Positions 2,494 to 5,995 of a stretch of 6,605 bases of DNA are shown in pieces. The stretch is from IMG/VR virus record IMGVR_UViG_2778261256_000001, one strand, 5' to 3'. Origin of the DNA: a virus (lineage: Duplodnaviria > Heunggongvirae > Uroviricota > Caudoviricetes). Numbering within the stretch: the first letter of the stretch is position 1; each line of letters opens with the position of its first letter. The notes under the pieces were generated by a model. It was not told where the DNA came from and did not search any database. It saw nothing but the letters and a program-made list of their open reading frames with translations. The position numbers were made by a program, and so were the translations under genes.

Positions 2494-2563
2494 ATTTTAC
2501 CTGTAGGTAAAAAGCAAATCAATACCCATAGGTTATTTACCGGCAGGTAATCAAAGATAGAAT
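2494..2563. promoter_or_regulatory. OR region. PR on the minus strand: -35 TTGATT (2517-2522) and -10 TAAAAT (2494-2499). PRM-like -10 TAGAAT on the plus strand (2558-2563), placing the transcript start about at the cI ATG. Operators: TACCTGTAGGTA (2498-2509), a weak TACCCATAGGTTA (2523-2535) and TACCGGCAGGTA (2538-2549).
   Basis: Palindromic 12-mers overlap promoter hexamers with 17-bp spacing, in a divergent cI/cro arrangement. Confidence 0.7.
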
Positions 2564-2569
2564 TAAATC

Positions 2570-3256
2570 ATGGATAAATACGAACAAAGACGACTAAGGC
2601 TGATAGAGATAAGAGACCGATTCTGTAATGGAAAGGCCTCAGAGTTGGCTCGTCGAATAGAAAGGGAACCATCATACGTTTCCAGAATGCTGTATCCGGA
2701 AGGAAAAAGCGGAAAAAAACGCATTGCTGACGATATGATGGAACTAATTGAAAAATCTTTTAATCTCCCACGCGGATGGATGGACATGCTTGCAGATGGT
2801 AAAGCTGGAGCTACAGACCATCTTGAGTTTGCGGGTAACGTTCGTGCGGGTTTTGTTCCGGTAATTGGTGAAGCCGTTTTGGGAGTTGATGGCTCAGTGG
2901 ATATGATTGAATTCAGATCCGGTTGGTTAAGCATCTACAGCGGCGATAACGATGCTTACGGTCTGAAGGTTAAGGGTGACAGCATGTGGCCAAGGATTCA
3001 GTCAGGAGAATATGTTGTTATTGAACCAAATACGCCAGTACATCCAGGTGATGAAGTCTTTGTAAGGACCAAAGACGGTCACAACATGATAAAGATCATG
3101 AACAAAACAAGAGACGGTGATTATCAGTTTAGTAGCATAAACAGTGATCACCGCCCAATCACTCTTCCTGTTGAAGAAGTTGATAAAATGCATTTTGTTT
3201 CAGCTATTGTGAAACACACCAGGTACGTAGACCAGGACGATCTGCCAAAAGTTTGA
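2570..3256 (+). CDS. cI: CI-like prophage repressor, 228 aa: N-terminal helix-turn-helix and C-terminal LexA/S24-type autopeptidase domain
   Basis: Helix-turn-helix-like segment GKASELARRIEREPSYVSRML. S24-like motif KVKGDSMWP with a downstream Lys. Ala-Gly candidates at FAGN and RAGF. Divergent from cro. Confidence 0.9.
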   Translation: MDKYEQRRLRLIEIRDRFCNGKASELARRIEREPSYVSRMLYPEGKSGKKRIADDMMELIEKSFNLPRGWMDMLADGKAGATDHLEFAGNVRAGFVPVIGEAVLGVDGSVDMIEFRSGWLSIYSGDNDAYGLKVKGDSMWPRIQSGEYVVIEPNTPVHPGDEVFVRTKDGHNMIKIMNKTRDGDYQFSSINSDHRPITLPVEEVDKMHFVSAIVKHTRYVDQDDLPKV

Positions 3257-3567
3257 GGATAAAGCAGCAAGTGTTTATACCCGGCATAGTAGTCGCTGTT
3301 GTAATCATCTGCTTCATATGGGCAAAGTTATCTCCTGTAAGCTCTAAGCATACAGCTGAACTCATGAAGAAGAAGCATCTTATACATGAGGCAGAATCGA
3401 TAATTAAAAAGTTCAAAGGCATGTCATACGACGACATGTCATCAGAGCAGATTGCTATGTATAAATGCGCCATTGAGCGTCTTGACTACTTAAACGGACT
3501 CAAACCCAAACACACCCCAGTAGAATCAAAATTGCCGCAATGGCCAAGCAATCCAAATAGCTTCTGA
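3253..3567 (+). CDS. Small membrane-anchored protein of unknown function (about 98-104 aa) in the rexAB slot. The start is uncertain: TTG at 3253 overlaps the cI stop, or more likely GTG at 3271 with GAGGA at 3255-3259.
   Basis: ORF sits immediately after cI on the same strand. Hydrophobic segment VFIPGIVVAVVIICFIW is followed by a K/E-rich tail, and an intrinsic terminator follows. Confidence 0.55.
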   Translation: MRIKQQVFIPGIVVAVVIICFIWAKLSPVSSKHTAELMKKKHLIHEAESIIKKFKGMSYDDMSSEQIAMYKCAIERLDYLNGLKPKHTPVESKLPQWPSNPNSF

Positions 3568-3578
3568 CATCTCCTTTC

Positions 3579-3602
3579 AGCCCGCAAAGCGGGCTTTTTT
3601 AT
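3579..3602 (+). terminator. Intrinsic terminator: AGCCCGC-AAA-GCGGGCT followed by TTTTTT
   Basis: Perfect 7-bp GC-rich stem, 3-nt loop and T-run, directly after the small ORF and before PL. Confidence 0.75.
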
Positions 3603-3617
3603 ATCAATCCAAAAAAT

Positions 3618-3713
3618 TAATTACCTGAAAATTCAAGCAGGTAAACTCTTACATCAATTTTATTTACCTGCAGGTATAGACAACTGTTTTACCTGTAGGT
3701 ATATTTTAGGCCA
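3618..3713 (+). promoter_or_regulatory. PL/OL. PL: -35 TAGACA (3677-3682), 17-bp spacer, -10 TATATT (3700-3705), start near 3713. Operators: TACCTGTAGGTA (3690-3701) and TACCTGCAGGTA (3665-3676). A split inverted repeat TTACCTG-N10-CAGGTAA lies at 3621-3644.
   Basis: Same palindrome family as at OR. Promoter hexamers are correctly spaced. Lambda-like sequence begins at the transcript start. Confidence 0.7.
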
Positions 3714-3745
3714 TCAGCAGGACGCACTGACCACCATGAAGGTGA

Positions 3746-3776
3746 TGCTCTTAAAAATTAAGCCCTGAAGAAGGGC
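3746..3776 (+). promoter_or_regulatory. nutL: nutL: boxA TGCTCTTAA (3746-3754) and boxB GCCCTGAAGAAGGGC (3762-3776)
   Basis: boxB hairpin matches lambda nutL as recalled and lies in the N leader. Confidence 0.85.
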
Positions 3777-3933
3777 AGCATTCAAAGCAGAAGGCTTTGG
3801 TGTGTGTGATACGAAACGAAGCATTGGCCGGAAGTGCGAATCCGGATTAGCTGTCAATGTGCCATTGCTGGGTGTTTTCGTTCAGGACTACGACTCCCAC
3901 ACACAACCAAAGCTAACTGACAGGAGAATCCAG

Positions 3934-4257
3934 ATGGATGCACAAACACGCCGCCGCGAACGTCGCGCAGAGAAACAGGCTCAATGGAAAGCAGCAAATC
4001 CCCTGTTGGTTGGGGTAAGCGCAAAACCAGTTAACCGCCCTATTCTCTCGCTGAATCGCAAACCGAAATCACGAGTAGAAAGCGCACTAAATCCGATAGA
4101 CCTTACAGTGCTGGCTGAATACCACAAACAGATTGAAAGCAACCTGCAACGTATTGAGCGCAAGAATCAGCGCACATGGTACAGCAAGCCTGGCGAACGC
4201 GGCATAACATGCAGTGGACGCCAGAAAATTAAGGGAAAATCGATTCCTCTTACTTAG
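3934..4257 (+). CDS. N: Antitermination protein N, 107 aa
   Basis: MDAQTRRRERRAEKQAQWKAANPLL... matches lambda N as recalled. Shine-Dalgarno AGGAG upstream. The longer track ORF from 3802 is leader sequence. Confidence 0.95.
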   Translation: MDAQTRRRERRAEKQAQWKAANPLLVGVSAKPVNRPILSLNRKPKSRVESALNPIDLTVLAEYHKQIESNLQRIERKNQRTWYSKPGERGITCSGRQKIKGKSIPLT

Positions 4258-4812
4258 TTACTTAGATATTGGCCTTGGCTTTATCTCAATATTATATGGA
4301 TCATAGCTGGCAACTAATTCAGTCCAGTAAATATCCTCAATAGGGAATAATATATGCTTCCCGTTCCATCGGGAAAAAGTTTTGTTCAACACACCAAGCT
4401 CAATCAACTCACTAATGTATGGGAATTGTTTTGATGTAACCACATACTTCCTGCCTTCATTAAGGGCTGCGCACAAAACCATAGATTGCTCTTCTGTAAG
4501 GTTTTGAATTACTGATCGCACTTTATCGTTTTGCATCTTAATGCGTTTTCTTAGCTTAAATCGCTTATATCTGGCGCTGGCAATAGCTGATAATCGATGC
4601 ACATTAATTGCTAGCGAAAATGCAAGAGCAAAGACGAAAACATGCCACACATGAGGAATACCGATTCTCTCATTAACATATTCAGGCCAGTTATCTGGGC
4701 TTAAAAGCAGAAGTCCAACCCAGATAACGATCATATACATGGTTCTCTCCAGAGGTTCATTACTGAACACTCGTCCGAGAATAACGAGTGGATCCATTTC
4801 TATACTCATCAA
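4258..4812 (-). CDS. sieB: Superinfection exclusion protein SieB, 184 aa, membrane protein
   Basis: Same length and position (abutting the N stop on the opposite strand) as lambda sieB. Contains hydrophobic segments. Confidence 0.9.
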   Translation of the reverse strand: MMSIEMDPLVILGRVFSNEPLERTMYMIVIWVGLLLLSPDNWPEYVNERIGIPHVWHVFVFALAFSLAINVHRLSAIASARYKRFKLRKRIKMQNDKVRSVIQNLTEEQSMVLCAALNEGRKYVVTSKQFPYISELIELGVLNKTFSRWNGKHILFPIEDIYWTELVASYDPYNIEIKPRPISK

Positions 4813-5758: not shown

Positions 5759-5830
5759 GCGCGGCGTTACCGCATACCAATTACGCTTCACTCGAGGCGT
5801 TTTTCGTTATGTATAAATAAGGAGCACACC

Positions 5831-5995
5831 ATGCAATATGCCATTGCAGGGTGGCCTGTTGCTGGCTGCCCTTCCGAATCTTTACTTGAACGAATCACCC
5901 GTAAATTACGTGACGGATGGAAACGCCTTATCGACATACTTAATCAGCCAGGAGTCCCAAAGAATGGATCAAACACGTATGGCTATCCAGACTAA
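5831..5995 (+). CDS. cIII: CIII, 54 aa, inhibitor of FtsH-mediated CII degradation
   Basis: Hand translation [54 protein letters not shown] matches lambda CIII. Shine-Dalgarno GGAG upstream. Confidence 0.92.
   Translation: MQYAIAGWPVAGCPSESLLERITRKLRDGWKRLIDILNQPGVPKNGSNTYGYPD

Follow-up and report, generated by a model that had tools for sequence, protein, structure and literature searches.

SieA of the P22-like phages is an inner-membrane protein of 162–164 amino acids (aa) with three transmembrane helices, which blocks DNA injection and is carried by 22 of 66 phages of this group, the other 44 being without it (Leavitt et al. 2024, PMC10883804). A shorter inner-membrane exclusion protein, the 62-aa gp15 of HK97, blocks DNA entry and derives from the host YebO family, as described by Cumby et al. 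(2012; via PMC3594210). The interval between the repressor gene cI and N is a mosaic hotspot, occupied by rexAB in lambda and by bstA in phage BTP1 (PMC8585504). Here we describe the occupant of this interval in a 6,605-nucleotide (nt) stretch of a lambda-type Escherichia coli prophage (IMG/VR record IMGVR_UViG_2778261256_000001, hereafter the window). It is a gene of 98 codons directly downstream of cI, the product of which is predicted to be a single-pass inner-membrane protein. The gene belongs to an uncharacterised enterobacterial family found in two repressor-linked slots, after cI in one class of phages and at the sieA position in P22-like phages, and we tentatively read it as a gene that may exclude superinfecting phages at the membrane.

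On the + strand a reading frame is open from the cI stop codon to position 3567. A TTG codon at 3253–3255 overlaps the cI stop TGA at 3254–3256, and a GTG codon follows at 3271. The earlier note on this DNA had placed the open reading frame (ORF), the TTG, the cI stop, the GTG and a GAGGA motif correctly, as all were found again on recheck, but its proposal that translation might begin at the TTG did not hold. The alleles of the cI-linked gene have either GTG or ATG as codon 1. The homolog in the distant lineage L062 starts with ATG (M-Y-I-S-G) and has an in-frame stop two codons upstream. Also the family members all start with M-[YFW]-I-[PS] and have a Shine-Dalgarno sequence just upstream, which in the P22-type copies is TAAGGAG(G) and lies 5–7 nt ahead of the start codon. 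Because of the alleles, the L062 homolog and the common start pattern, TTG 3253 was ruled out and GTG 3271 taken as the start. This gives a product of 98 aa, and the basic N-terminus (MRIKQQ) described earlier falls outside it and does not exist.

All 32 close copies of the gene, taken from phage, viral-contig and genome records and representing 11 alleles, were intact. Their polymorphic sites were distributed as 12, 5 and 2 among codon positions three, one and two, and the pooled ratio of nonsynonymous to synonymous polymorphism (pN/pS) was 0.20, compared with 0.11 for cI by the same measure. Because the copies are intact, the third positions vary most, pN/pS is low and codon 1 alternates between GTG and ATG, the 98-codon ORF is a real gene under purifying selection. 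The phase of the polymorphism fits the + frame, and coding on the antisense ORF at 3204–3473 (−) was thereby ruled out. The scan with Rfam found no RNA family at 3253–3602, which ruled out an RNA element in place of the gene.

In the RefSeq (PGAP) complete E. coli genomes inspected, the gene was unannotated, leaving a gap of 677 bp between cI and N. The corresponding empty interval is 3257–3933 in the window, 3505–4222 in locus L003 and 23099–23775 in L071. GenBank phage records and some draft genomes do annotate the gene, the phage records as a hypothetical protein. The omission by the NCBI pipeline, together with a GTG start that has a distant Shine-Dalgarno motif, speaks for a non-functional ORF, the region then being the 3' untranslated region and terminator of cI and perhaps an RNA element or a decaying remnant. 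This view is contradicted by the intact copies and their polymorphism, by a protein whose conservation in two distinct genomic contexts reaches down to about 30% identity, by the strong Shine-Dalgarno sequences of the copies in the immI region of P22-like phages and by the empty Rfam scan; on these sequence comparisons it is effectively refuted.

Residues 2–18 form the only hydrophobic segment of the protein, a helix (FIPGIVVAVVIICFIW) with a Kyte–Doolittle hydropathy of 2.5 over 19 residues. In all 20 full-length family members no lysine or arginine precedes the helix and one to four follow within the next 15 residues; since this charge pattern accords with the positive-inside rule, the N-terminus is predicted to be outside and the remainder of the protein cytoplasmic. 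The tail includes 13 K+R and 9 D+E, so that the single hydrophobic helix and the K/E-rich tail reported in the earlier note were both fair descriptions. An AlphaFold2 model based on an alignment of 19 sequences had a mean predicted local distance difference test score (pLDDT) of 80, and consisted of a transmembrane helix (residues 5–20), a helical hairpin (24–47 and 58–76) and a C-terminal tail. Among 21 aligned members, residues I38, E40, A41, C66, A67, L71, W91 and P92 were invariant and H27, K34, L37, S52, M56, Q60, R70, L74 and K78 nearly so. A cleavable signal peptide or a lipoprotein was rejected, as there is no conserved AxA site and no lipobox, and Cys14 is not conserved.

The only family match was to phrog_10450, of unknown function, of which the window protein is a full-length member (E-value 1.4e-54; residues 7–104 against profile positions 1–98 of 98). 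The best matches in Pfam (E-value 0.098), NCBIfam (0.1) and the sequence profiles of PDB (0.31, designed helical filaments) gave no lead to a function, none of the PADLOC models matched, and a fold comparison of the AlphaFold2 model gave no match, the fold being a generic helical hairpin. All public names of the cluster members were "hypothetical", "uncharacterized" or "phage protein". The protein, which the first reading of the sequence had failed to recognise, thus has no characterised match in any of these searches. In the literature on mEp043, the other mEp phages and the rexAB slot, no study of the protein was found, and neither was a transcriptome of a lysogen with an immunity module of the mEp043 type.

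A word-indexed search returned only relatives of at least 93% identity, whereas proteins of similar length at 32–43% identity came up when 1.84 billion representatives were scanned exhaustively with HMMER. Homologs at 30–43% identity have the same length, and the family motifs, too, are kept down to about 30% identity. The profile search produced 25 clusters, all of them enterobacterial (E. coli, Shigella, Salmonella, Citrobacter and E. fergusonii). phrog_10450 seems to cover the cI-linked subgroup only; the immI-linked relatives came from the exhaustive scan.

The members divide into two classes according to their position. In class (a), the gene lies directly after an S24-type cI of the same immunity family and before N; this class includes the window, phage mEp043, 31 viral or genomic loci and the distant lineages L059 and L062. 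In class (b), with 27 loci and covering phages N7 and HZ41, 25 viral contigs, L060 and L061, the gene adjoins the ejection-protein gene 16 of P22-like phages, on the opposite strand. Situated between mnt and gene 16, on the side of immI that carries mnt, this slot is the sieA position of P22 (between genes 16 and 9) and differs from that of the window's own copy, which follows cI instead. A Mnt-like repressor gene of the Arc family was detected upstream on the same strand in about 18 of the 27 class (b) loci, its product being 36% identical to P22 Mnt. In none of the 27 loci was SieA of type A (P22) or type B found, the reference for the latter being the protein of prophage HS1 of E. coli HS, confirmed as SieA-like. 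Class (a) was present in 52 and class (b) in 62 of 5426 complete E. coli genomes (about 1% each), and the family occurs on hundreds of contigs from Salmonella, Shigella and Citrobacter. Conservation of the ORF beside cI, which had been suggested as a check, was found throughout class (a), the L059 and L062 lineages included.

Within class (a), the ORF is only 40–42% identical between the window and L059 and L062, compared with 89–92% for Cro and 83% for cI. Between lineages with 83–92% identity in cro and cI, the ORF has 40–48%. By this comparison the ORF evolves fast at the edge of an immunity module that is otherwise conserved, and the fast divergence is compatible with a role in an arms race with changing phage targets.

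Some further loci of the family were observed. A 38-kb P22-like viral contig (IMGVR_UViG_2563366933_000009, loci L006 and L042) carries both paralogs, the cI-linked copy 98–99% and the immI-linked copy about 37% identical to that of the window. A homolog of 114 aa (P0008; L063, 5001–5345) is situated in what seems to be the remains of a P22-like prophage, where gp7 and a truncated gp20 are present, and adjoins genes for a type VI secretion system Hcp and a Tlde1 domain, and this is the only context of the family outside the two slots. In some P22-like phages a Panacea-domain (SocA-like) antitoxin gene and its upstream partner lie between mnt and the family gene (L035, 3732–4605, −). The pair is likely to be toxin-antitoxin cargo, and the immI slot would therefore be one that gathers accessory or defence genes.

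The arrangement of signals suggests how the gene in the window would be expressed. The PRM-like promoter, with OR operator palindromes around it (2498–2509, 2523–2534 and 2538–2549), is likely the lysogenic promoter for both cI and the ORF. Its −10 element (TAGAAT) ends 6 nt ahead of the cI ATG, so the cI mRNA would be leaderless, as in lambda. A cII-type site, TTGC-N6-TTGC at 2089–2102, suggests that transcription from PRE also reads through into cI and the ORF during establishment. The gap between the cI stop and the ORF start is 14 nt in the window, 4 nt in L059 and 3 nt in L062, the tight junction being retained in these diverged lineages, and translational coupling of the ORF to cI is plausible. 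Because the gap is so short, no terminator lies within it and a strong one follows the ORF, co-transcription of the two genes from PRM and PRE is the natural reading of the sequence. The strength of the terminator ahead of PL, noted already at the first reading, was borne out by folding (stem 3579–3595, −12.6 kcal/mol, z −3.4 against shuffles). The L062 homolog is followed by an analogous terminator and the L059 homolog is without one.

The position of the gene, between cI and the terminator, OL/PL and N, equals that of rexAB in lambda, so the placement in the rexAB slot made in the earlier note was right. The nearest other relatives of the window cI, those of 933W and H-19B (about 50% identity), have different cargo here. 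In 933W the slot holds L0084, L0083, the stk kinase gene and L0081, followed by the annotated terminator tM, and the hidden Markov model (HMM) of the family did not match the other cargo ORFs of the 933W and H-19B slots. The content of the slot hence varies from this ORF through four other genes in 933W to rexAB in lambda. With a confirmed terminator and the inferred lysogenic promoter, the gene is a prophage accessory ("moron") gene, which would be expressed in lysogens. A prophage-expressed small membrane moron beside a repressor is a known kind of element and not a new kind of system; it is the family itself that is uncharacterised.

Compared with P22 SieA, the protein is likewise a prophage-encoded protein of the inner membrane with its conserved part predicted to be cytoplasmic, and the family homologs hold the sieA position, convergent with gene 16, in P22-like phages without SieA. 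The proteins themselves differ: SieA, of which types A, B and C are known, has 162–212 aa, three to four transmembrane helices and the motif FxRYPxEAxxFNK, whereas the family has about 100 aa, one helix and the motifs LIxEA, CAxERL and WP. The SieA motif was absent from the family alignment, and homology was rejected by hhalign comparison of the family profile with P22 SieA (probability 0.3%) and with the type B SieA of HS1 (0.1%). A direct comparison with P22 orf59a showed no relation either. The likeness to HK97 gp15 is one of architecture only, as both have a very short N-terminal tail, one N-terminal transmembrane helix and a charged helical C-terminal tail; gp15 is expressed from a prophage, as the present protein would be, and its gene, too, is closed by its own terminator. 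However, gp15 is YebO-derived, has 62 aa and lies in the tail operon, whereas the protein studied here has 98 aa and its gene follows cI, and homology to gp15/YebO was rejected (hhalign probability 0.5%; hmmsearch of the family HMM against the gp15 ORF, E-value 6).

RexA and RexB of lambda occupy the identical slot and are co-transcribed with cI in lysogens, and RexB is a membrane protein. They form a two-gene abortive system with a polytopic RexB, whereas here a single 98-aa ORF with one transmembrane helix is found. The ORF had no Pfam, NCBIfam or PADLOC match, which is indirect evidence against a relation to Rex, the RexA and RexB sequences not having been compared directly. BstA of BTP1 and Stk of 933W are encoded downstream of a repressor gene, presumably under its promoter, in units that are closed by a terminator and serve defence, but both are large and soluble, BstA being a DNA-binding abortive protein and Stk a kinase, and neither is related to the family in sequence. 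The ORF showed no similarity to the SieB of the window, while lambda SieB was not compared directly.

Taken together, we lean, with some reserve, towards an inner-membrane protein that the prophage expresses and that keeps superinfecting phages out at the membrane, because the family replaces sieA in P22-like phages and has a gp15-like architecture. The existence of a second slot downstream of a repressor, the sieA slot, for the distant homologs somewhat strengthens this reading. The 98-aa protein would span the inner membrane once, its N-terminus facing the periplasm and a conserved domain of about 75 aa, the helical hairpin, lying in the cytoplasm. Lysogens would express it from the promoter-distal gene of the cI operon, on a transcript started at PRM and, during establishment, at PRE, and ended at 3579–3601. 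It would protect the lysogen against other phages at the inner membrane, possibly by interfering with incoming phage DNA as it enters or becomes established, in the manner of P22 SieA and HK97 gp15 and not as a Rex-type two-component abortive system. A more specific reading is possible but is held with less confidence: that these proteins are a new superinfection-exclusion family of about 100-aa single-pass inner-membrane proteins, which replace SieA in P22-like and RexAB in lambdoid prophages and act from the cytoplasmic face on the incoming DNA-delivery machinery.

Several observations weigh against exclusion as the function. The cI-linked copies are found in lambda-type siphoviruses (mEp043 and the window prophage) as well as on one P22-like contig; therefore the target need not be the P22 ejection proteins, and a target shared with SieA is not implied. 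No homology was detected to SieA, gp15, Rex, SieB or the PADLOC models, where Rex and lambda SieB were not compared directly, and the generic helical-hairpin fold says nothing on function. No experiment, transcript or proteomic datum for the family was found. The fast divergence could equally result from weak constraint or from the exchange of diverged alleles in a mosaic. The immI copies need not be co-transcribed with mnt; sieA of P22 is transcribed from a promoter of its own, and around the immI copy of L040 neither a promoter nor a terminator was detected. Cargo unrelated to exclusion, such as the kinase and the Panacea toxin-antitoxin pair, is found in these slots as well, so that the argument from position and architecture is one of guilt by association.

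Many small single-pass proteins of E. coli modulate membrane complexes, and it is conceivable, though somewhat unlikely, that also this one is a lysogenic-conversion or host-physiology factor without a part in phage defence, which might for instance modulate an inner-membrane transporter, a protease or a stress sensor, or aid lysogeny. Linkage to two lysogeny repressors, cI and Mnt, would suit such a role in the prophage state, and the origin of gp15 in a host family, as given in PMC3594210, provides a parallel. Among the loci examined the family was, however, confined to prophage contexts and had no host-core homolog, and the replacement of sieA in P22-like phages points to conflict between phages. 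A membrane protein in the slot that lambda rexAB and BTP1 bstA, both abortive systems, occupy could also be a membrane-anchored abortive-infection or toxic effector analogous to RexB or SieB, which would stay idle until triggered by a phage and then depolarise or disable the cell, with the conserved cytoplasmic domain as a possible sensor. We consider this improbable: unlike RexB and SieB, the protein has one transmembrane helix and no amphipathic or multi-helix pore element, the ORF stands alone between cI and the terminator without a partner sensor gene, and neither PADLOC nor the SieB of the window revealed a relative.

The window as a whole covers the early and immunity region of the prophage, in reverse orientation to the standard lambda map (Table 1). 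Its flanks are about 98% identical to lambda, and the immunity module from cII to PL is of the phage mEp043 type (99.4% identity), the cI gene likewise sharing 99.4% DNA identity with the "prophage repressor" of mEp043. Near-identical whole windows are present in E. coli chromosomes, where the prophage adjoins ybhC and has lambda-type head and tail genes. Positions 1–158 matched neither lambda nor the best-matching E. coli prophages, the alignments of which begin at 159 or 161; judged from these alignments, this marks a mosaic junction that lies towards ren, just past the 3' end of P.

Table 1. Positions of the genes, signals and protein segments in the window
Feature	Position	Strand	Basis or remark
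P	201–902	−	
O	899–1798	−	
cII-family gene	1833–2114	−	
cro-like gene	2231–2461	−	
PRM-like promoter, TTTACC-16-TAGAAT	2536–2563	+	Promoter scan; role by analogy with lambda PRM
cI repressor gene, 228 aa, S24 peptidase C-terminal domain, mEp043 immunity type	2570–3256	+	ORF list; Pfam Peptidase_S24, E-value 1.4e-17
GAGGA, Shine-Dalgarno-like motif overlapping the cI stop	3255–3259	+	11 nt before GTG
Small membrane gene after cI, 98 codons + TGA stop, GTG start	3271–3567	+	Product MFIPGIVVAVVIICFIWAKLSPVSSKH...WPSNPNSF
Single N-terminal transmembrane helix (predicted), codons 2–18	3274–3324	+	Hydropathy; flank charges; AlphaFold2 helix, residues 5–20
Conserved helical hairpin (predicted), codons 24–76 (helices 24–47, 58–76)	3340–3498	+	21-member alignment; AlphaFold2
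Invariant C-terminal W91-P92	3541–3546	+	
Intrinsic terminator, 7-bp GC-rich stem (AGCCCGC/GCGGGCT), 3-nt loop, T6 run	3579–3601	+	
OL/PL region bounding the slot	3621–3705	+	Operators TACCTGCAGGTA 3665–3676 and TACCTGTAGGTA 3690–3701
PL-like promoter, TAGACA-N17-TATATT	3677–3705	+	mEp043 record: "putative PL" at the matching position
N	3934–4257	+	
sieB	4258–4812	−	Beyond sieB: ral, cIII, gam side

The operators of the module are 12-bp palindromes TACC-N4-GGTA, three of them at OR and two at OL. The operator pattern TACCNNNNGGTA had six matches in comparison to 1.3 expected, and none of 200 shuffles reached six. Between the terminator and the two OL palindromes there is an inverted repeat, TTACCTG-N10-CAGGTAA (3621–3644), which has the operator half-sites but a 10-nt spacer, compared with contiguous halves in the operators, and is kept in L059 and L062. 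The repeat may serve as a third, unusually built OL site or be recognised by some other protein. A terminator-like match on the − strand at 3762–3776 (GCCCTGAAGAAGGGC) resembles the nutL boxB hairpin, which lies upstream of N, and not a terminator. The Cro-like protein gave a Pfam match to YdaS_toxin of 26 bits, just under the cutoff of 30 bits, and is named "prophage antirepressor" in the mEp043 record; its position and its match to phrog_35 (transcriptional repressor) in PHROG speak for Cro. The lambda cIII thermoregulator element of Rfam was recognised (88.5 bits) at 5818–5876, at the start of the cIII gene (5831–5995).

For the family, which has neither a name nor an assigned function, the replacement of sieA in P22-like phages provides a concrete hypothesis that can be tested cheaply. 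If exclusion should fail as the function, the result would still be a correctly delimited and conserved gene of a small membrane protein that the current RefSeq annotation overlooks. If exclusion is true, the family would supply a very small new exclusion protein for comparison with SieA and gp15, and if the more specific reading of a new exclusion family holds, one protein scaffold would have been recruited to two different repressor-linked loci. Prophage genes that are expressed together with the repressor decide which other phages infect the lysogen, which is of relevance to phage therapy, to the spread of Stx and other converting phages and to prophage ecology in E. coli, Shigella and Salmonella.

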